Shown: one piece after another, positions 11,940 to 20,919 of the stretch
How the letters are laid out: each line of letters opens with the position of its first letter
Numbering within the stretch: position 1 is the first letter of the stretch
Source of the DNA: Candidatus Collierbacteria bacterium CG_4_9_14_3_um_filter_43_16
GTDB taxonomy: Bacteria > Patescibacteriota > Microgenomatia > UBA1400 > MFAQ01
DNA length: 27,832 nucleotides
Direction: 5' to 3'
Assembly (NCBI GenBank): GCA_002789895.1
Contig: PFUC01000004.1
Span: 1 to 27,832, forward strand
The notes under the pieces: model-generated
What the model was told of the DNA's origin: nothing
What the model saw: the letters and a program-made list of their open reading frames with translations, nothing else
Databases searched by the model: none
Program-made: the position numbers and the translations under genes

Positions 11940-12707
11940 TTAGCGAACGACTACGGGTGGCCCAATTGGTGTGGGAGTAACTTTTGCGGACTGAGTAATG
12001 ATAGATAGGGGGAGTGATTTCGAACTAGATCCGCCTCGATTATCACTGACATAGACCTTTAGATTGAAGAATCCAGATTGGATAGGAGTTCCAGAGATGT
12101 AACAGGTGATTTTGCCCCCGCTGACAGGAACTGAGCAAGGACCAGTTTTCAATCCAAAAGGTAATCCCGATATCGTCATGGTTAAAGCATCGCCAGAGTC
12201 GATATCAGAGGCATTCACCTTTGCATTGTACGATTTGTTTACATAACCAGTTGGTAGAGATGTGGTCTGGATAAGGGGAGGGTGATTGGTTGATGGTGTG
12301 GGGGTAGGAGTTCTTTTGGGAGTGGGTGTGGGTGTGGATTTACTTAGAGTTAGTTGTTTGACATAGAAGTAGGGTCCTTTCAGAATACCTGTAGCAATAA
12401 CTCGTTTGCCGACAAGTGGCTCCGCAAGAGATTTGGAAACCACCAAGGCGGTGCAAACACCTTTATCTCTAAGAATGCGATACCGGCCTTTTCCCTTGAC
12501 TGGAAGTGGAATTCCTACACATTGAGTCGTATCAGAATCACTTATCAGCTTGCCTATCAGAATTGAACCGTAAGAGGCGCGACTTTGATCGTTGAAGTTT
12601 CCAGTCTTTAGAAGTAGAGCGACGCCAAAAATAATAACCAGACCAATTAATAATAGGAGAGCAGAGAAAAGAGTCTTTTTATTCTGCTTTTTCATCTTTG
12701 TCTTCAT
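11940..12707 (-). CDS. Membrane-anchored surface protein with Pro/Thr linker and putative Ig (He_PIG/cadherin-like) domain
   Basis: N-terminal TM helix, TPTPTPKRTPTPTP linker and 'NHPP.I.TTSLP.G.V...Y...V.ASD.D.GD....SGLP.GL...ISGTP...G.F...V.VSD'. Confidence 0.8.
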   Translation of the reverse strand: MKTKMKKQNKKTLFSALLLLIGLVIIFGVALLLKTGNFNDQSRASYGSILIGKLISDSDTTQCVGIPLPVKGKGRYRILRDKGVCTALVVSKSLAEPLVGKRVIATGILKGPYFYVKQLTLSKSTPTPTPKRTPTPTPSTNHPPLIQTTSLPTGYVNKSYNAKVNASDIDSGDALTMTISGLPFGLKTGPCSVPVSGGKITCYISGTPIQSGFFNLKVYVSDNRGGSSSKSLPLSIITQSAKVTPTPIGPPVVVR

Positions 12708-12802: not shown

Positions 12803-14560
12803 CTAAAATTTATCAATATCGAGAACGGGCTGGCCGTAGTCGAAAATCTTAATAGGAATTTTTTCTTGTCCGATCAGTTTACTTCCGGAATAGGTAAGTT
12901 TGACGAGAATACCTTTTCTCGTTTCTTCCGACCACATTTGATCGAAAACTAAATTTCCCAGCGAATAGTAGATAGGTTTACCCAAATAGGTTTCAATCTC
13001 CTGGACCCAATGTGGATGGTGTCCGATGACAGCATCGGCACCAGAATCAATAGCCATATGAGCCAGCTCTACCTGATGCAGAGATCGATGACTATATTCA
13101 TTACCCCAATGAAAAGAGGCAATCACTATATCGGCTTGCGATTTGGCATGAATTATCTGATCGGAAACATTAACAGGCCAAGATGCGGAGACCTGAGAAA
13201 AATTTGGGGGGATATCGTTAAAACCCAGAAAGGCTATTTTTGTATTCTTGACGGTTTTGATCACCGGTTTCCCCAAACCAACAGGGGCGATTTGATTTTG
13301 GTTAAGAGTTGAAATGGTAAGGTCGAAACCACTATTACCCTGATTATCAATATGATTGTTGGCAAGGTTAGCAATGTCTACACCCGAGCCAACCAAGCCT
13401 TTGACAGAAATTGGGTCAGCACAAAAGACCATACCTGTGTCGGTAGATTTACACTCAGAACCAAAGGGTGATTCTAAGTTTATGAAGGTTAAGTCGGCAT
13501 CGTTCAGGATGCTGGATATTTTCTTGAACGGCCAAGAAGGATCGTTGTTTTTGGCGATCCGGGTACCAACTGACCGCCCAAGCATAACGTCACCGCCGAA
13601 AAGGAGAGTGGTGGAGGTGATCTCAGATTTCAGATCTCGGATGCCAGTTGGGGAAGGAATCGTATTGACGACAGAAGACTGTTGAGTGACGACCATGTGG
13701 CCGATAAGCAAATAATAGGAGGTAACCGATTCGGGAATGTGGTTAAAGGCGTACGAATCAGTGTGAACCAGAACTTCAGAAACAAGAGATCTGGCCCGAA
13801 TAATCTTCAGAGCCGATATCAGGGAGGCCGGAGAATCGAGATACTCCGATGATAGCTTTTCGATAGCCTGATAGCTGTGGTTGTATATAAAATTTTCGGT
13901 TTGATCGTCCCTCTGCGTAGCTTGGTCGCGAGTTAAGCCGTGAGAAAAATCAACTGAAGCAATAATTACAGTGTCAGGTGAGGCAGTAATTAGTTGTTGG
14001 ATAAAGCTATCGAGCAAGGCCTGATCAAGGTTCTTCTTGAGAGCAAAAGGAACAACTTGGGTATTTGGCAGGTAAAACGCAAGAAACGGCATTAGCCCGG
14101 CAAGCCCATGTTCGGGCACAAGAGCTTGATCGTCCAAACAGACAGTACCATGTCTGACGAACGAACCCAGAAGATTTTTATCCACTTGGATTTGCCCGTA
14201 CGGCGTGTCCCAACTATTTGATGATGAAATAATATCGCATTGACCGGTATTGGCGTGATTCGGTGACAAAAGAATAATTGTCTTGGGTGGGTCGGCGGTA
14301 AGTAAAGAGATCCCCCTAGCGATAATATTAGAAGCGGTTAGATGGTGCGGAACAACCATGACGGAAGGAGACGAACCTTGGGAAAGAGAAGGGTATTGAA
14401 GAACAGCAGGGAAAAAAGTACGATTATCGTAGGCAAAATCAGTAGAAAATGATGGCGAGAGAGAGGTGGTTCCCCGGGAATGACGGACACCAAAATAAAT
14501 AAGCAGCAATAAAAAAAGCAGAAAGGGAATGGAGACGATTAATCCCCGCCTGGTTTTCAT
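12803..14560 (-). CDS. Memo (AmmeMemoRadiSam protein B-like)-CapA/PGA_cap metallophosphatase fusion, membrane anchored
   Basis: Memo-like motifs VPHH, LSPNH, EHG and ASVDFSH. CapA motifs GDVMLGR, NLESP, LANNH, FHWGNEY, GHHPH and YSLGNLVFDQ. Confidence 0.9.
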   Translation of the reverse strand: MKTRRGLIVSIPFLLFLLLLIYFGVRHSRGTTSLSPSFSTDFAYDNRTFFPAVLQYPSLSQGSSPSVMVVPHHLTASNIIARGISLLTADPPKTIILLSPNHANTGQCDIISSSNSWDTPYGQIQVDKNLLGSFVRHGTVCLDDQALVPEHGLAGLMPFLAFYLPNTQVVPFALKKNLDQALLDSFIQQLITASPDTVIIASVDFSHGLTRDQATQRDDQTENFIYNHSYQAIEKLSSEYLDSPASLISALKIIRARSLVSEVLVHTDSYAFNHIPESVTSYYLLIGHMVVTQQSSVVNTIPSPTGIRDLKSEITSTTLLFGGDVMLGRSVGTRIAKNNDPSWPFKKISSILNDADLTFINLESPFGSECKSTDTGMVFCADPISVKGLVGSGVDIANLANNHIDNQGNSGFDLTISTLNQNQIAPVGLGKPVIKTVKNTKIAFLGFNDIPPNFSQVSASWPVNVSDQIIHAKSQADIVIASFHWGNEYSHRSLHQVELAHMAIDSGADAVIGHHPHWVQEIETYLGKPIYYSLGNLVFDQMWSEETRKGILVKLTYSGSKLIGQEKIPIKIFDYGQPVLDIDKF

Positions 14561-17500
14561 TTGATGCTTACGGACCCAGACGGAGAAAGATTGAAAATTG
14601 ATGGCGAAATTAACGATTGAATCAAAGCACTTTCGGCTCGGAAGTCTCCGGACGAGACGACTCGGGCATAGTAATTGATGGTATTACTTGTGTTTTCCTT
14701 GCCGACACAGAAACTAATCTTTTGGCCATTGATTTCATATGGATACCAGACATCGCTCGTACTAAGTCCGAAACTGTAAACAGAGGTAATGGGCCTTAAC
14801 CCAGAAGGAAGCAAGTCTGAAACCTGATAACAGCCATCTTGAGAAATAGCGGTACGCGAGACGGGCAAAGATACTCGAATCAGATCTGCGCTAGAAAAAG
14901 TATTAGTGATAGAACCACGAACAGAATAAGTTCTTCCCACTGTGACCGAGGGACTGACATTGGCGGTTTTCGGATCTAGAACGGTGGTAAAAGTTGAACT
15001 CAAACCAATATCACCACTCAAGTCACTAAAGGATATCTCGGTAAGTTCTTTGGACGATAACTCCAGCTTAAAGACTTGACCTTTGTCAAGCTTTTTAGTC
15101 GTCTTTTTCCCGTTTAACGTGTAGGCAAAAGAAACAGGCAGTGGCTTGACGTTGTCAATTTGATTAGAAATAGCCAACAATTGGGGTGAAACAAGCAAAA
15201 TGTCTTTGCCATTATTGGCGAGGGTAAACCCAAGGAGACTATCTGTTTCCGGTTCTCCCAGTATTGAAGCGAGGGCAGCCATAAGGGCGGTGGCCTGAAG
15301 CTGAGAGTCTTTATCCGAGCCAATCTTTATAGACATAAAGTTGTCTTGTTTGACAGAAAAATCGGAAAGAAGAGCCCGATAGGTGAGCAGGGCTTTCTCG
15401 GTATCTCCGATTTTAGCCTGAGCCAATCCCAAATATATACGAGATAACGAGGTGAGATTATTGGCTTCGGAGAGATTGTCTATGAGTAAGAGAACCGGCT
15501 CGTCCAAACTGGCTAGACCAAAAAGAGATGTTGAAGCGGTGTCGACGTCTTTGGCTTGGGCCAATTGGCGATAGAAATAGTTTCCTAAACCGACGAAGTC
15601 AACCTTACTTTTGGCAAGTGCAGCGACAAAGGTAGAAAGTCCCAAGTCAGACCCTGAATAGGGAAAGAGAGCAAAACCACCATCAGGGGTTTGGTAAGGT
15701 GTCAAGTCAAGTTTTTCGGGAGTGATTGAGTCGTCAAAAGTTTTTTTGATAATTTCTCCGGAAAGTGTCCTAGTCAAGCGCTGATCCAGACGATCTCCCC
15801 ATGTGTAGGTCAAATTGGATAGAAGAGGGAAGAAACGACCTAGACTTTTGTCTGAGAAAATTAAAGCAGTGGGAGAATCGCTTGAACCTTCCGGTTTTGT
15901 GTCCGGAGATAAAGTAGTGCTGGTGGTTTTGACTACTTTGAGGCGTGAGTTGAGAACCAAAATCTTTTTAATTAATTTGTCAGAGAGGTTGCCGGAGCTA
16001 CCGGATATTGTGAGAGTATGTGAACCTTCTTTCATTTCCCCTAGATCTATAGGTACGTTTTCGAAAACTCTAGCGTTAAGGTTTTTATCTAAACCAAGAG
16101 AGGCTGATTGAATTCGGATGGCGACCTGGTCCCCGACGGACAGCCCTTCTCCATAAGCGCGGACCGAAATCCGGGGCCGCTCCCCGACCAAGTATTCGGT
16201 ATTTATAACCGCGTCGACAAAAAAGGGTTGCTTGACTACCAGAAGGTTGGAATTGGCACCGGCATTTAGATCGCCAGTTACTCCCTGAGAAGTAATCCTC
16301 CAAGAAGTAAGATTATCCGGAAGCTTGACGTCCAAGCTGGCCTGCCCATCACCGCCGGTGCGAACGCTGCCGAAATAGGCATTGTCTACGAAGAGTTCGC
16401 GGCCTTTTTCATTGTGAACATAGAAACCATCGGCAAGGTAAGTATTAAGTTTGTCGACCGTAAAATTATAAACAGTGTTTATGCCTGATCGAGATTCAAT
16501 GGAGTAAATTTTCTGATAATCTCCGCGTGAGTCCAGATAAAAATCGCCTATTTGTGCCTCTCCTGCCGTCATGAAGCGACCGTTGATATAGAGATTATGT
16601 TCGGCGGTAACCCTTAACCGATTATTAATGATGAGATACCCAGAAACTTGGTGTCGAAATACTTGGACAACTTTGGAGTTGACTGTTTTGGCCGAAGTGG
16701 GGCTTTGGAGAGTTTTGATGGTGTCGCTGACAACAATATCTTCAATATTTTTCGACTGTCCATTTCCCATAAGAATAGCGGTGCCAGGTAGAAAACAACC
16801 GCCACCTTCGGCCCCGGAGGAGTCAAGAGGATACTGATGTGACTGGTAAGAAACAATAATGTCCGGATCCAGAGAGCTGTAAATTCTGGCTAGAGGATCC
16901 ACAGTGATGGGGTTCATGGCGTTGTAGGCTTCATCGAGAAAGCTGAGATTGACCTCAGCCGACACCGGAGAGCCGTGTGAATCTTTGGACAGAATAGAAA
17001 GCCTGGCAGTACTACCTGGGAGATAAGATGATTTATCCAGGGTAATATCCAGCGAAAGTTTCTTGGCTGAATGATTGAACATTAGATTTAAACTTTCTGA
17101 TACTTCGTAGGTTTTTCCCGTAAAGCGAATGGCCCGAACAGAGATGTTGGGGATAAAGGTCTCAGGGAACTTAAAACCAACATTCGGGTCATCCGAGATC
17201 TGATAAGACTTGATACCTCTCTGAGCAAATAAGTACAGGAATTTGTCGGAATCGGTGGAGGACATGGGGACTTCCCCACGCATGACAGTAAGATTAACCG
17301 GCTCACCTACCGCAAAACCGTTGTTGATCTCAGATTTGTCCGATTTGAGGAAAATATAATTGTTTCTAGGGTAGTTATCAGCAGATCCGGAAACGTAAAC
17401 ATCCTGAGTGGTGATTCGGTTCTGATTATCTGCGGCGCGAAAAATAACGTTGTAAGATTTGCCTTCCGTAATCGGAAATTCGTAGATACCCTTACCATTT

Positions 17501-19773
17501 GCATCTGTAGTTAAACTGATGTCTGCGATTTTGTTTTGGACACGGTCGTATTCGTATCTTGGGGAAGTTACTTTGTTGATAAAGTCGTAGTAGGTACCCA
17601 CCTCACGACGGTTCCATTGGTTCTCCATGAGCGCGCCGGTAATAGTCCTGCTAGGTGCAGGAGAAAAAGAATCAAACGAGGTATGGGGTACGAATTTTGA
17701 AGTGTCTACCTGCCGCAAGTCCAACTCCACCCGGCCGGTCTTTCCTTTTGATTCTGATTTCGTGGAATTGAAAGTTAAAGAGGAATTGAAGACCGCAATG
17801 GACATATCGGTCTGGATATTTCCCTCTTCTGGTAGTAAGGGTCGAAGCGAAAGATAGGTATATTCTGGAGAATAATTAATAAGGCTGGGGTTTATTGAGG
17901 CGATTTGATTAAAACTAAATTTCCCCAATGAGTCGGTCGTCACCGTCCCGTTAGTGTCACGACTGGTGTATTTTAAGTTCATGCCGGGGATGGGTGAGCC
18001 TTCGAAAAAAGTAGCCTGTCCAGTGAAAGAAATAGTATCTCCGACGATAGCGGCCTTCTTTGAAGATTGGAGTATCAGTTTATAGGCTGGCTTGGTGTAA
18101 GTAGCCACAGTAAATGAAGAGCTCATGACTACAGAATCCCCTATCTTGAGAGCGATTCCGTACCAACCGGGATTGAAACCCGATAAGGGGATATCCCCGA
18201 TAAAAGTGCCTAGATCATTAGTTTCAAAATCTTTGGTAAACAGAACGATGGGATTAAAATCCCAGCTGGTATAGTCCGACCTAGTGACTTCTAGGGTGAA
18301 CTTTTGTTTTTGGTTGAGATTGTCCCTATCTCGAAGTAGTCCCCAGAATTTAATGCTGTCGGTAGGGAGATAAACGGGCCGATCGGTATAGAAATAACTC
18401 CAGTATTTATCTAATATGCGTCTGGTTTGTTGATATTTTGAGGAATAATAGTTGCCAGAATTTTTCGGGGGGAGAAGCAGATTGCTGTTGCCGTAACTAA
18501 CAGTGATGGCCGAGGGTTCTTCTATCTGTGACTGAGGGGTGTCAAAATAGGCTATGCCTTCTGATTCGGTCTCCTGCACCTTTCCTCCAAAATTTATTTT
18601 GGCTCCGGAAACTGGTTTTTGGGAACTAATGTCATTGACCCAAACCAGAGTCTTGGTGCCACTGGCACCAAGATAAGCTGATATATCGGTAATTTGAACC
18701 AATGCCTGAGTAGAAATATTGTCTATGGTAGATTCGACTAAGTAATATCCTTTGGGTAGAGATTGAGGGAATAAAAAGAAGTTGGTATATGTCTGCTGAT
18801 GAATGGGGGTGTGGAAGTCCAGAACCTTCGTAAGACCAGTGATCGGTAAACGTTTGGAATGGAGAGAGTTTGATGCCCACGAGGGAATAGAAAGGAGAGC
18901 ATTAAAATCTGAACTAAAACCCGGAAAACCGGAATACTGGAAGACCTGAACAGAAAGGTCTCCGCCACCGAGAGACGAAGTATAAATATCGAAGGCGGGT
19001 GTTTCCGATGATGAAAATTCATAAAAATTTCTGGCGAATCCGAGAGTTCGTGTAGAATTGGACTGTTGGGTTTCAAAACGAAAAACAAAATCCTCTTTGA
19101 GGGTTTCCGTGGTTCCATTTAGTTTCAAACCTTTTTTAACCTTGATGGTGTAAAGAGTGCCGGGAGTAAGGTCCTTGGGGACGAAAGATAAGGTGCGCTT
19201 ATGACGCTCAAAGCGACCATCGACGATCGGAGTGATTTCGAAGTTTCCTTCTTTTAGACCGATATCTGCCCAGTTGTCGTGGCTGAAGGTTATCTCAATT
19301 CCGGAATTTAGGGGCACATAGGTAGCCTGGTCACAAGGGAGGGTTTGAACCACACGAAAATCATTTTTTGTTTGGAAGGCCCAGGAAAACGTCTTTTGTT
19401 CGGAAAGAATCTTGATCCGATACAAACTATTGTCCTTCAGGATGGTTTTGGGAAAAATACTAAACTGACGGGGACCGACCTCTCTAATGTCGAATTCTAT
19501 TTCTGGGAAGAAAGTGACGTTATCCCTCAGACTGGCGATATCCAGGTCCTGATCGGATTTTAGAGTAAAAGAGGAGTCTGAAAAGGTTCCCAGAGAGTCT
19601 TGCCTATCCGCGGTGAGTATCAGGCCAGTAATTGAGCCGAGCTTGAGCTTGGCGGAATGTTGAAGGTACTGTGAAGCGAGAATGACAGAGATGAGTATGC
19701 CCACCGAGGCAAACAGAACGCCAAACAGCTGCCAAGGACGCAAAGAACCCAAGAAGGTTTTTATTTTTCCCAT
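14557..19773 (-). CDS. Alpha-2-macroglobulin-like surface protein, thioester-less, with a Hint domain in the bait region
   Basis: TM anchor, two Ig-like (Big_5-type) repeats, MG2 (FYTDRPVYLPTD.I.FWG), 'LDKSSYLPG..A.L.I....G.PV.A.V.LS..DEA', A2M domain (KLPDNLTSWRI; LVVKQPFFV) and TED (YQTPDGGF). Start moved from TTG 19812 to ATG 19773 because of the promoter. Confidence 0.92.
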   Translation of the reverse strand: MGKIKTFLGSLRPWQLFGVLFASVGILISVILASQYLQHSAKLKLGSITGLILTADRQDSLGTFSDSSFTLKSDQDLDIASLRDNVTFFPEIEFDIREVGPRQFSIFPKTILKDNSLYRIKILSEQKTFSWAFQTKNDFRVVQTLPCDQATYVPLNSGIEITFSHDNWADIGLKEGNFEITPIVDGRFERHKRTLSFVPKDLTPGTLYTIKVKKGLKLNGTTETLKEDFVFRFETQQSNSTRTLGFARNFYEFSSSETPAFDIYTSSLGGGDLSVQVFQYSGFPGFSSDFNALLSIPSWASNSLHSKRLPITGLTKVLDFHTPIHQQTYTNFFLFPQSLPKGYYLVESTIDNISTQALVQITDISAYLGASGTKTLVWVNDISSQKPVSGAKINFGGKVQETESEGIAYFDTPQSQIEEPSAITVSYGNSNLLLPPKNSGNYYSSKYQQTRRILDKYWSYFYTDRPVYLPTDSIKFWGLLRDRDNLNQKQKFTLEVTRSDYTSWDFNPIVLFTKDFETNDLGTFIGDIPLSGFNPGWYGIALKIGDSVVMSSSFTVATYTKPAYKLILQSSKKAAIVGDTISFTGQATFFEGSPIPGMNLKYTSRDTNGTVTTDSLGKFSFNQIASINPSLINYSPEYTYLSLRPLLPEEGNIQTDMSIAVFNSSLTFNSTKSESKGKTGRVELDLRQVDTSKFVPHTSFDSFSPAPSRTITGALMENQWNRREVGTYYDFINKVTSPRYEYDRVQNKIADISLTTDANGKGIYEFPITEGKSYNVIFRAADNQNRITTQDVYVSGSADNYPRNNYIFLKSDKSEINNGFAVGEPVNLTVMRGEVPMSSTDSDKFLYLFAQRGIKSYQISDDPNVGFKFPETFIPNISVRAIRFTGKTYEVSESLNLMFNHSAKKLSLDITLDKSSYLPGSTARLSILSKDSHGSPVSAEVNLSFLDEAYNAMNPITVDPLARIYSSLDPDIIVSYQSHQYPLDSSGAEGGGCFLPGTAILMGNGQSKNIEDIVVSDTIKTLQSPTSAKTVNSKVVQVFRHQVSGYLIINNRLRVTAEHNLYINGRFMTAGEAQIGDFYLDSRGDYQKIYSIESRSGINTVYNFTVDKLNTYLADGFYVHNEKGRELFVDNAYFGSVRTGGDGQASLDVKLPDNLTSWRITSQGVTGDLNAGANSNLLVVKQPFFVDAVINTEYLVGERPRISVRAYGEGLSVGDQVAIRIQSASLGLDKNLNARVFENVPIDLGEMKEGSHTLTISGSSGNLSDKLIKKILVLNSRLKVVKTTSTTLSPDTKPEGSSDSPTALIFSDKSLGRFFPLLSNLTYTWGDRLDQRLTRTLSGEIIKKTFDDSITPEKLDLTPYQTPDGGFALFPYSGSDLGLSTFVAALAKSKVDFVGLGNYFYRQLAQAKDVDTASTSLFGLASLDEPVLLLIDNLSEANNLTSLSRIYLGLAQAKIGDTEKALLTYRALLSDFSVKQDNFMSIKIGSDKDSQLQATALMAALASILGEPETDSLLGFTLANNGKDILLVSPQLLAISNQIDNVKPLPVSFAYTLNGKKTTKKLDKGQVFKLELSSKELTEISFSDLSGDIGLSSTFTTVLDPKTANVSPSVTVGRTYSVRGSITNTFSSADLIRVSLPVSRTAISQDGCYQVSDLLPSGLRPITSVYSFGLSTSDVWYPYEINGQKISFCVGKENTSNTINYYARVVSSGDFRAESALIQSLISPSIFNLSPSGSVSIK
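16411..16797 (-). other. Hint domain (A-type BIL / pretoxin-Hint-like mini-intein fold), 129 aa
   Basis: Block A CFLPGT (Cys codon 16797-16795), block B TAEH, block F VYNFTV, block G VHN (Asn codon 16413-16411). The +1 residue is Glu. No endonuclease domain. Confidence 0.93.
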
Positions 19774-19783
19774 CAATGATTTC

Positions 19784-19812
19784 ATTTTAATTTCAGGGTA
19801 GGGAGATGTCAA
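19784..19812 (-). promoter_or_regulatory. Consensus sigma70 promoter TTGACA-17-TAAAAT for the A2M operon
   Basis: -35 at 19812..19807, -10 at 19789..19784, 10 nt before ATG 19773. Confidence 0.8.
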
Positions 19813-20039: not shown

Positions 20040-20444
20040 TTATGTTTGAACAAAGTACTGAGGATTGGACAAGTTCACGATGATGAGGGCGGGCGGAAGA
20101 AACAGATCATTGTTGTTGGTGTTATTCAAAAATAACGTTATATCTTTGACGATCTGTAGCGCACTGTCACGGAAATCACTGATTATTGGTGGTTGAATAC
20201 CGCCTTTGGTGTATTGGTAGCTGATGACCACTTCTACCCGTTCGGTGGGAATCAACGTTTTGGTTTCTGGATTGTACTCAAATTGCTTGGCAGGAATAAA
20301 GATGGCGTGAACCCTGCCGTCAAGTTTTACCGGATGGGCTGCCTTCTCAAAGAATTTGTGAGTGTCAGCTAATAAATGCTTGAGAGAATCTTGCTCCGGT
20401 TTAAAATTTTGGCCGACATTTTTTACTTCGATGATAATGTCCAT
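20040..20444 (-). CDS. Hypothetical protein, 134 aa (paralogue B)
   Basis: ATG 20444 lies 2 nt after the upstream stop and aligns with the neighbouring paralogue. Confidence 0.75.
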   Translation of the reverse strand: MDIIIEVKNVGQNFKPEQDSLKHLLADTHKFFEKAAHPVKLDGRVHAIFIPAKQFEYNPETKTLIPTERVEVVISYQYTKGGIQPPIISDFRDSALQIVKDITLFLNNTNNNDLFLPPALIIVNLSNPQYFVQT

Positions 20445-20446
20445 TT

Positions 20447-20851
20447 TCAGCGCCCGCGCCATTCTGATTCAGTAACAGGATTCAGGCCCAGAAATTTGTA
20501 CTTTTTACCGCCTGATAGAATTTTGACCATTGCAGGAAGGTTTAAATCTTGATGGCTTGAAACTTGGAGAAGATCTTGGATCTTATTATTTATTAGAGCA
20601 GCCTGCGAGGAAAAAGATCTCGCGACATAGGTCCGTTTACCTTCAGAAGCATCTTCACAAACAAGGACCTCGACAGGACTTACGGGAATAATTTTCCCGT
20701 CCGAAAATGTGCTGAAAGAAAGGGCTGTATCAAAAGTAACCTCGACCGGAGAGTGGTAGGCATTTTCGACAATCTGTAATAGCTTTCCGAGAGATTTCAA
20801 ATCAGGACAAAAGGTACGACTAACATTCTTGATGGAAACTAGGATTTTCAA
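20447..20851 (-). CDS. Hypothetical protein, 134 aa (paralogue A)
   Basis: AGGAGG-6 nt-TTG start at 20851. TGtTATAAT promoter at 20890..20882. Confidence 0.75.
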   Translation of the reverse strand: MKILVSIKNVSRTFCPDLKSLGKLLQIVENAYHSPVEVTFDTALSFSTFSDGKIIPVSPVEVLVCEDASEGKRTYVARSFSSQAALINNKIQDLLQVSSHQDLNLPAMVKILSGGKKYKFLGLNPVTESEWRGR

Positions 20852-20919
20852 AGTAAACCTCCTCAAAGATGGTAATGGGACATTATAACATGGGGCGTGG
20901 TTAGACTATACTTAAAGAT

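Follow-up and report, generated by a model that had tools for sequence, protein, structure and literature searches.

The first 27,832 nucleotides of contig PFUC01000004.1 (forward strand; GenBank assembly GCA_002789895.1, Candidatus Collierbacteria bacterium CG_4_9_14_3_um_filter_43_16), here called the window, encode a protein of the alpha-2-macroglobulin (A2M) family whose bait region is interrupted by a complete Hint domain, the autoprocessing fold of inteins and bacterial intein-like (BIL) domains. We slightly favor, with a probability of roughly 0.55, the reading that this is a domesticated A-type BIL/PT-HINT domain in the bait loop of an A2M-like protein that is exported and held at the membrane by an anchor, and that the Hint would serve there as a maturation or priming step for the trap and would not be a selfish passenger. 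To our knowledge, activation of A2M-family proteins is thought always to start with an outside protease cutting the bait, and we know of no earlier case of a bait loop with its own cutting and joining chemistry. A bait so equipped would let the trap be armed, timed, or fired in another way. Full-text literature searches linking macroglobulin with Hint, BIL, intein, or PT-HINT returned no description of such a system, in agreement with a preliminary description of this DNA, made from the sequence alone, that knew of none; the literature on A2M homologs of parasitic bacteria of the Candidate Phyla Radiation (CPR) discusses only possible protection against host proteases and does not mention Hint. 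Residue numbers below refer to the longest open reading frame (ORF) of the gene.

14557..19812, minus strand: A2M-family gene; longest ORF 1751 aa, opened by TTG; likely start at the ATG at 19785 or 19773

A complete Hint domain

The segment from Cys1006 to Asn1134 is confirmed as a complete Hint domain of the BIL/PT-HINT kind, and its parts are as follows.

16411..16797, minus strand: 129-aa Hint domain (A-type BIL/PT-HINT), Cys1006 to Asn1134, recognized by Pfam, NCBIfam, a PDB profile, AlphaFold2, Foldseek, and VIA-align
16795..16797, minus strand: Cys1006 (Hint residue 1), predicted nucleophile of the N-S acyl shift; invariant in 91/91 clusters
16597..16608, minus strand: block B, T1069-A-E-H1072; Thr in 89/91 and Ser in 2/91 clusters, His in 91/91
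16438..16473, minus strand: block F, VYNFTVDKLNTY; the usual His at Hint position 118 (16447-16449) is Asn; His in 66/91 clusters
16411..16416, minus strand: terminal His1133-Asn1134, predicted site of Asn cyclization; 91/91 clusters; Asn1134 codon 16411-16413

The preliminary description had placed the domain at exactly these coordinates, and all of the motifs that it listed (GAEGGG, Cys1006, TxxH, VYNFTV, LNTY, and a closing His-Asn-Glu) are present. It had also named a Pfam search and a structure prediction as checks, and the segment came through both. PT-HINT (PF07591, cut-off 27.7 bits) scores 37.1 bits on the whole protein; for residues 990-1150 excised from it, the score rises to 42.7 bits (E = 8.7e-11). 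The segment thus scores as Hint by the curated threshold, and the NCBIfam model intein_Cterm likewise exceeds its cut-off. The sole sequence match of the whole protein in the PDB is 2LWY, annotated as a "bacterial intein-like domain," and a profile built from 61 family members matches the same entry at E = 5e-19, ahead of Tetrahymena BIL2 and the mini-inteins. Modeled by AlphaFold2 together with 10 flanking residues on either side (mean predicted local distance difference test [pLDDT] 88.9), the domain folds as the Hint horseshoe. Its nearest structural neighbors are BIL domains: Foldseek ranks BIL2 (6Y75/6TMM) and 2LWY first, followed by inteins and Hedgehog; the 50 best-ranked matches (63 at E <= 0.001) all belong to the Hint superfamily, comprising BIL domains, inteins, and Hedgehog autoprocessing domains; and VIA-align superposes the model on 2LWY with Z = 21.4 and a root-mean-square deviation of 1.5 Å over 130 residues.

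The residue following the domain (+1) is Glu1135, which is non-nucleophilic, as in BIL and PT-HINT domains and not as in class 1 inteins. No homing endonuclease or remnant of one was found by Pfam or in the AlphaFold2 model, the Hint comprising only 129 aa without an additional domain. It sits in a variable Gly-rich loop of a protein predicted to be extracytoplasmic, and the 617 aa that follow it make up the A2M's C-terminal half, with no toxin domain. Two other assignments were tried and rejected. A canonical class 1 intein does not fit, given the Glu at +1 (Glu, Asp, or Gln in 86/91 clusters) and a site that is a variable Gly-rich linker and not a conserved motif. A Hedgehog-type Hog domain does not fit either, since the terminal His-Asn is present and the A2M resumes directly after the Hint, where Hog domains have a region that recognizes sterol.

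Position in the bait loop

Pfam domain order, multiple alignment, profile alignment, and structural superposition bear out the bait position proposed in the preliminary description, in an A2M that has a predicted membrane anchor and lacks a CxEQ motif. The features that define the site are these.

16924..17319, minus strand: Pfam A2M_BRD (residues 832-963), the macroglobulin (MG) domain preceding the bait; 29.4 bits against a cut-off of 22.7; matches ECAM, A2ML1, and C5 in structure
16798..16854, minus strand: disordered linker on the N-terminal side of the bait, VSYQSHQYPLDSSGAEGGG, ending Gly-Gly-Gly at positions -3 to -1; pLDDT < 50 for model residues 167-183
16390..16401, minus strand: R1138-E-L-F1141, the RxxF motif opening the post-bait (BR-C) segment; aligns with human A2M RKYF and A2ML1 RQYF; Arg in 86/91 clusters
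16162..16365, minus strand: Pfam A2M domain (residues 1150-1217), containing LPDNLTSW; 31.9 bits, cut-off 21

Pfam domains follow one another in the 1751-aa ORF as Big_5 (151-248), MG2 (473-516), A2M_BRD (832-963), PT-HINT (1032-1134), and A2M (1150-1217), which places the Hint between A2M_BRD and A2M. The MG2, A2M_BRD, and A2M scores exceed their cut-offs, and bMG10 (1638-1737) and bMG3 are weak matches. This is the domain order of the A2M family, and structural matches to ECAM, A2ML1, C3, and C5 reach Z scores of 11-15. A MAFFT alignment with Hint-less homologs and E. coli ECAM (sequence drawn from NC_000913) renders the Hint as a clean insertion in the Gly-rich linker, facing ECAM GQGRLAALRFGGDGDELKRGGKPPVNHVNIVVQQ; the comparison with Hint-less orthologs, which the preliminary description had proposed as a way to test the insertion site, thus returned the bait position. 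By hhalign, the family profile matches ECAM with a probability of 93% and puts the Hint at about ECAM 939-972. We take GQGRLAALRFGGDGDELKRGGKPPVNHVNIVVQQ to be the ECAM bait loop, with limits (about 939-972) that come from the alignments and not from published residues.

An AlphaFold2 model of 439 residues (pLDDT 88.7) ties the Hint to the flanking MG domains through low-confidence linkers (987-1003 and 1137-1142). The flanks superpose on native ECAM 759-1089 (Z = 15.3), human A2ML1 454-860, and C5 466-902; this MG unit carries the bait in A2Ms and the anaphylatoxin domain in complement proteins (PMC9156758). On the C-terminal side, "HN-EKG-RELFVDNAYF...LPDNLTSW" aligns with human A2M "H-TETV-RKYFPETWIW...VPDTITEW" and with A2ML1 "RQYFPETW." By this alignment, the C-terminal junction of the Hint lies four residues ahead of the RxxF switch element. 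In A2ML1, the highly conserved Arg730 and Phe733 are part of the post-bait segment, which retracts after cleavage and thereby starts the conformational change (PMC9156758).

Conservation and distribution

A word-indexed search recovered 92 clusters (at 90% identity) that combine PT-HINT with A2M, together with 28 Hint-less homologs. The Hint-bearing clusters share 32-100% identity with the query across residues 900-1300, and 91 non-redundant ones, with a Hint of 126-130 aa, provide the conservation counts used throughout. Twelve Hint positions are invariant (Cys1, Phe2, Ile18, Asn58, His67, Gly84, Val109, Asn111, Thr119, Ala122, His128, and Asn129) and three more nearly so (Thr6 and Asp85 in 90/91 each; Thr64 in 89/91, with Ser in the other two), while most other surface positions vary. 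On the bait side, position -1 is Gly in 88 clusters and Ala in three, and position -2 is Gly in 88. On the other side, 36 clusters have Glu at +1, 26 have Asp, and 24 have Gln, and none of the 91 has Cys, Ser, or Thr there; the preliminary description was thus right about the missing +1 nucleophile, and not for the window alone. It was also right that the block-F His is replaced by Asn in the window.

When one genome per species was scanned, 217 loci proved to encode an A2M-type Hint. Locus-level results refer to the best 80 of these; in 79 of them the Hint, located with a pattern that required Cys-Phe, lies in an open frame, and all 79 have Cys1. These frames span 998-2144 aa, the shortest ending at contig edges. 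The A2M flank was recognized by pattern in 66/79 and as close variants in the remaining 13, and the +1 residue is Ser in three loci and Cys in one. No decayed copy of the Hint was seen among the 91 clusters and 79 loci.

By their record titles, nearly all of the 80 best loci come from CPR bacteria (Collier-, Gottesman-, Magasanik-, Peregrini-, Uhr-, Moran-, Davies-, Levy-, Woese-, Dojka-, and Saccharibacteria, among others). Several records of metagenome-assembled genomes (MAGs), including L004, L005, L008, L020, and L023, are labeled "uncultured Pseudomonadales," "uncultured Gammaproteobacteria," or "Nanoarchaeia archaeon"; these labels are probably wrong, because the A2M-Hint genes in them are 50-83% identical to genes of Collierbacteria or other CPR bacteria. 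The distribution within CPR is patchy. Among 401 evenly sampled Patescibacteria genomes, 52 match residues 960-1220 and about 19 of the matches span the Hint; no match spanning the Hint was found in the single other genome of the window's family in that sample.

Evolution of the Hint and its host protein

A tree of the host protein, built with Hint columns removed and including 88 full-length Hint-bearing homologs, has two deep clades. In the first, all 28 members carry the Hint and 21 carry CxEQ. The second, which is thioester-less, has 60 members with the Hint and 27 without, and includes a Firmicutes/Clostridia subclade that lacks it. Four Hint-less proteins are nested among Hint-bearing ones (for instance, P0054, which is 66% identical to P0022), and well-supported branches force at least six gains or losses. 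The idea that the Hint substitutes for a lost thioester was considered and is disfavored: CxEQ is retained at the thioester position in 24/88 Hint-bearing homologs, every one of them in a single deep host clade, so the Hint, found in thioester-bearing as well as thioester-less A2Ms, is not a simple replacement for CxEQ.

In the nested Hint-less cases, the unit that is deleted is the Hint together with the x-Lys or x-x-Lys that follows it. P0059 reads AERGG[C...HN-EEK]GGGSARADF, and its Hint-less counterpart P0110 reads AERGG-GGGDARVDF; a second pair is AEGGG[Hint+DK]GGSVF and AEGGG followed by GGSLF. Since AE-G-G-G is kept in the Hint-less forms, it is part of the bait, and the [E/D/Q]-Lys is part of the Hint. 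In three Hint-less proteins (P0054, P0063, and P0096, aligned to about 16400-16815 of the window), the bait is a run of 8-11 Gly after "AE" or "QG." As a matter of speculation, such a poly-Gly bait might target Gly-Gly endopeptidases, that is, cell-wall hydrolases of the lysostaphin type.

Inheritance of the Hint is mainly vertical, with repeated loss or gain and under purifying selection. Mapped onto host clades, the Hint tree needs 10 label changes, versus 50 with shuffled labels, and shows no well-supported conflict. Tree distances are smaller in the Hint (2.08) than in the host protein (3.18). The ratio of nonsynonymous to synonymous substitution rates (dN/dS) was calculated for the closest pair only (the window and Collierbacteria MAG L003), synonymous sites being saturated beyond it, and is 0.083 for the Hint, 0.079 for the N-terminal flank, and 0.116 for the C-terminal flank. 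A recent horizontal insertion was considered and is not supported, as the Hint tree matches the host clades, the GC content of the Hint segment is unremarkable, and the window's own genome has a single PT-HINT.

The His of block F aids C-terminal cleavage in many inteins. It is missing from 25/91 clusters, which make up the window's Collierbacteria subclade (Asn, Ser, or Gly instead) and a second subclade (Glu, Gln, Lys, or Gly). Both keep all of the other catalytic positions, and constraint elsewhere in the Hint is not relaxed. Because two subclades lost this His while other catalytic residues and a dN/dS of 0.08 were kept, it is dispensable for whatever is selected, and the shift toward N-terminal thioester chemistry that the preliminary description had tied to its loss need not follow.

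An accompanying lysine and tandem-Hint relatives

All 91 clusters have a Lys shortly after the Hint.

16405..16410, minus strand: Glu1135-Lys1136 (+1, +2), present only with the Hint; Lys at +2 in 80/91 and at +3 in 11/91 clusters; deleted with the Hint in nested relatives

At the locus level, Lys occupies +2 or +3 in 79/79. A HMMER search with the Hint profile against 1.84 billion representative sequences returned 1126 proteins at E <= 1e-30, the top scorers being non-A2M proteins with 2-13 tandem copies of the A2M-type Hint. Five of these (P0124, P0129, P0130, P0131, and P0132) have, in this order, a signal peptide and "RAGGG," then three to five Hints and a stretch rich in Gly, then a transmembrane helix followed by a Tim44-like domain. 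In the tandem-Hint proteins Lys is at +1 in 168/218 units, and the linker between Hints is usually Lys-Gly(1-5), so the "exteins" are only 2-6 residues long. Because of the Lys at +1 in 168/218 tandem units, a Lys right after the Asn, where class 1 inteins place their nucleophile, reads as a hallmark of this Hint clade.

One tentative proposal, which we hold to be unlikely, is that the Hint and its Lys form a lysine-directed splicing module: the epsilon-amine of Lys1136 would attack the Gly1005 thioester, Asn cyclization would free the Hint, and a Gly-Lys isopeptide would join the halves, leaving a one-residue dangling N-terminus. BIL2 of Tetrahymena thermophila makes an isopeptide between a C-terminus and Lys (PMC8616854), and this is a precedent for a lysine resolving the thioester, not evidence for the window A2M. 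If the proposal were true, lysine-directed splicing would be an enzyme-free, ATP-free, ubiquitin-like linkage made outside the bacterial cell, and the isopeptide bait might be read differently by ordinary proteases or be a latent branch point passed to other amines. The same chemistry would then explain tandem Hint arrays whose "exteins" are merely Lys-Gly(n). The invariant neighboring lysine makes the disputed ligation by Hint domains without a +1 nucleophile directly testable.

Proposed mechanism

The conserved residues, combined with the established chemistry of Hint domains, suggest the following course of events. The Hint would fold after export. Cys1006, aided by Thr1069 and His1072, would attack the carbonyl of Gly1005 and convert the Gly-Cys peptide bond to a thioester, and Asn1134, aided by His1133, would cyclize so that the chain is cut before Glu1135. 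An amine, most likely the side chain of Lys1136 or the freed alpha-amine of Glu1135, would then resolve the thioester and re-join the halves; without such an amine, water would hydrolyze it to give a two-chain protein. With either outcome, the 129-aa Hint would leave the loop, and a short Gly-rich bait like that of the Hint-less orthologs would remain directly before RxxF. BIL domains are known to form an N-terminal thioester and to cleave at the C-terminal Asn, those without a +1 nucleophile yielding mainly cleavage and some ligation (PMC7664689, PMC7765530), and release of the RxxF segment is what starts the conformational change in A2M-family proteins (PMC9156758).

Our confidence differs among the parts of this scheme. 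That the Hint is catalytically active is very probable, and that it has been retained for a host function is probable, though far from certain. Should it be active, we give re-joined halves an even chance and a two-chain product somewhat less than that, and consider transfer of the thioester to another molecule improbable. Since both ends of the Hint are strictly conserved, selection is unlikely to be for a single cut, and re-joining, by peptide or isopeptide, is slightly favored over two chains on account of the Lys that accompanies the Hint. Timed or conditional maturation, or another host function of this sort, is favored over a purely selfish existence because the insert has stayed intact in a deletion-tolerant linker since the A2M clades diverged.

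Several observations weigh against our preferred reading. Hint-less relatives are nested among Hint-bearing ones, with the at least six gains or losses noted above, which implies that the host protein works without the Hint and fits a dispensable passenger too. Purifying selection is expected for any intein that disables its host on failure, and so is no proof of host benefit. The block-F His is absent from the window's clade. With regard to position, the alignments with animal A2Ms at RxxF are weak when taken alone (E = 0.013-0.44), although Pfam and structural matches agree with them, and the MG ring is arranged differently in bacterial and animal A2Ms (PMC9156758).

Alternative explanations

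One alternative is that the Hint is a selfish or neutral mini-intein-like passenger, whose BIL-type self-removal yields a normal A2M with no gain to the host and which is kept since failed excision would cripple the host protein. Its patchy occurrence (about 19/401 sampled Patescibacteria genomes), its alternating presence and absence among close relatives, the gains or losses that the tree needs, and a Hint-less form that resembles the spliced product all agree with this, as does the presence of the same Hint clade in tandem arrays elsewhere, meaning that it spreads between contexts. It has no homing endonuclease, however, and its +1 residue is never Cys, Ser, or Thr in the 91 clusters, though +1 nucleophiles make BIL domains efficient splicers (PMC7664689). 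Further, a useless insert in a variable Gly-rich linker, where imprecise deletion should be harmless, should decay, and no decayed copy was encountered; instead, the Hint evolves more slowly than the host protein and has been retained since before the two A2M clades split to roughly 30% identity. On balance we regard a passenger as rather unlikely. A host function could also take the form of a protease-independent self-trigger, in which the Hint cuts the bait by Asn cyclization, with or without thioester hydrolysis, to give a two-chain A2M, either as constitutive maturation, in the way that furin processes C3, C4, and C5, or as conditional firing of the trap. BIL domains without a +1 nucleophile do yield predominantly cleaved products (PMC7664689), the predicted C-terminal junction lies four residues ahead of the RxxF segment that bait cleavage frees, complement proteins are processed into two chains at the same topological site (PMC9156758), and bait-cleaved bacterial A2Ms remain associated as two fragments (PMC5764988). 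One cut would suffice for this purpose, yet the N- and C-terminal catalytic sets are both invariant; the invariant Lys that accompanies the Hint is left unexplained; and a self-springing trap is hard to square with protease trapping unless it is tightly conditional. Self-triggering is therefore a real but doubtful possibility. The preliminary description had proposed self-activation without a protease, and this stands as one possible outcome, but the catalytic sets at both ends and the Lys fit excision with re-ligation at least equally well.

Another use of the thioester would be conjugation, in which the Gly1005 thioester would be captured by an amine on another molecule, for example, a peptide of the cell wall, a surface protein of a host cell, or an attacking protease, so that the membrane-anchored N-terminal half becomes covalently linked to the target. 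Hedgehog links its N-terminal part to cholesterol. Lysines of other proteins receive the N-extein of BIL2 (PMC8616854), the N-extein of the A2M terminates in Gly-Gly like ubiquitin-like domains, and the A2M protein is extracytoplasmic by its predicted anchor. But transfer needs the N-terminal chemistry alone, yet the terminal His-Asn is invariant; the Gly-Gly also occurs in Hint-less relatives, so it is a feature of the bait and not of the Hint; and the nearby conserved Lys makes an intramolecular reaction likelier. The gene neighborhood indicates no partner, and we know of no link of Memo or CapA, encoded next door, to conjugation chemistry. We consider a conjugation device quite improbable, and the covalent tethering to a host surface that the preliminary description suggested gained no support beyond its chemical possibility. 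Least probable is that the Hint fold is inactive and has been retained by the bait loop as a structural spacer or a module for binding. The block-F His has been lost in the window's clade, and some Hint-fold domains are non-catalytic, such as AXH, of which there are weak Pfam matches in the window A2M; still, Cys1, TxxH, and His-Asn are invariant over the 91 clusters while most surface positions vary, which is unexpected for a non-catalytic module.

Comparison with known systems

A-type BIL domains (Clostridium thermocellum 2LWY; PF07591) are the best match in sequence and structure. They share with the A2M Hint a length of about 130 aa without endonuclease, Cys1, TxxH, a VYN-type block F, a terminal His-Asn, the lack of a +1 nucleophile, and a location in a variable region of an extracytoplasmic protein. 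Described BIL and PT-HINT domains, however, occur in hypervariable secreted proteins or before C-terminal toxin domains, whereas the A2M Hint is fixed at one site of a large conserved scaffold, has co-diverged with it across CPR, and has an obligatory [E/D/Q]-Lys after the Asn. For intein biology, it represents a large, vertically inherited BIL family fixed at one extracytoplasmic site of one host protein. BIL2 of T. thermophila BUBL1 (6Y75/6TMM) is the top Foldseek match (E = 2e-10, TM-score 0.81), and its N-extein likewise ends in Gly-Gly, followed by Cys-Phe (Ala-Phe in the crystallized C1A mutant), with the thioester reported to be resolved on lysine (PMC8616854). In contrast to the A2M Hint, BIL2 is eukaryotic, has ubiquitin-like flanks, is only about 21% identical, and has its Lys within a folded C-extein domain and not at +2; isopeptide chemistry is reported for BIL2, whereas the A2M Hint is known from sequence and model. 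Class 1 mini-inteins (Mtu RecA, Npu DnaB) share the fold (Z = 19-20) and the catalytic residues at both termini. They differ in that the A2M Hint has no Cys, Ser, or Thr at +1, does not lie in a conserved active-site motif of an essential cytoplasmic protein, and is predicted to work outside the cytoplasm.

Bacterial A2Ms are of two types. Type I (E. coli ECAM/YfhM and Salmonella A2M) has CxEQ and is paired with PBP1C; type II (Pseudomonas aeruginosa MagD) has no thioester and is encoded in the six-gene mag operon. The window protein has the same order of MG domains, bait, A2M, and MG10, and like MagD lacks CxEQ. Its bait holds a folded autoprocessing domain, and it has a transmembrane anchor plus Big_5 instead of a lipoprotein signal and a Memo-CapA partner. 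It thus departs from type I in having no CxEQ, no PBP1C neighbor, and a transmembrane anchor (a Hint-bearing related protein, P0095, does have CxEQ and a PBP1C-like neighbor), and from type II in its neighborhood, which is not a mag operon. Complement proteins C3, C4, and C5 offer a parallel in that the topologically equivalent insertion in MG6 is taken up by a folded anaphylatoxin domain, and processing at that site yields two chains (PMC9156758); there, however, processing is by external proteases (furin, then convertases), and the inserted domain differs in fold and function.

Gene start, remaining features, and gene neighborhood

The other features of the A2M gene and its downstream partner are listed here.

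19784..19812, minus strand: promoter-like TTGACA-17-TAAAAT; 11/12 consensus positions; the -35 box is the TTG taken as ORF start
19666..19734, minus strand: N-terminal hydrophobic signal anchor, WQLFGVLFASVGILISVILASQY, residues 27-49, read from the sequence
15781..15798, minus strand: GDRLDQ (residues 1339-1344), aligned with the thioester motif in the preliminary description; the protein is without any CxEQ
12803..14560, minus strand: Memo + PGA_cap (CapA-like) fusion gene downstream of the A2M; its start overlaps the A2M stop codon

The opening TTG of the ORF coincides with the -35 box of a near-consensus promoter, so the true start of the gene is probably the ATG at 19785 or 19773 and not the TTG, and residue numbers would then be 9 or 13 lower. 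The ATG at 19785 is the start of the database cluster P0002 (1742 aa). This first ATG (19785-19783) overlaps the -10 box of the promoter. Translation may begin at 19773, possibly from a leaderless mRNA or one with a very short leader. Given the single hydrophobic anchor at the N-terminus, most of the protein is expected to be extracytoplasmic and anchored to the membrane. No CxEQ thioester motif occurs anywhere in the window A2M, which has only four cysteines, Cys1006 of the Hint among them.

A Memo-like gene lies directly downstream of the A2M gene in 55/80 related loci, and the same pairing is seen beside Hint-less homologs, with Memo in Clostridiaceae and PGA_cap next to P0054. Two proteins with both CxEQ and Hint show the range of contexts: P0080 is encoded between PGA_cap and Memo genes, and P0095 is encoded beside a PBP1C-like gene, the classical type I pairing. 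Found beside PBP1C-like genes as well as Memo/CapA genes, the Hint is an addition to bacterial A2M systems of more than one kind. Memo/CapA looks like a third conserved partner of bacterial A2Ms, besides PBP1C and the mag operon, and the combination of A2M with Memo/CapA marks a surface system that is widespread in CPR bacteria and also occurs in some Firmicutes. Pfam gave no match for the 255-aa ORF that follows Memo-CapA (11940-12707, minus strand) or for two ORFs of ~140 aa upstream of the A2M gene (20040-20866, minus strand); of the two upstream ORFs, just one has a weak relative, confined to one related locus (L005).

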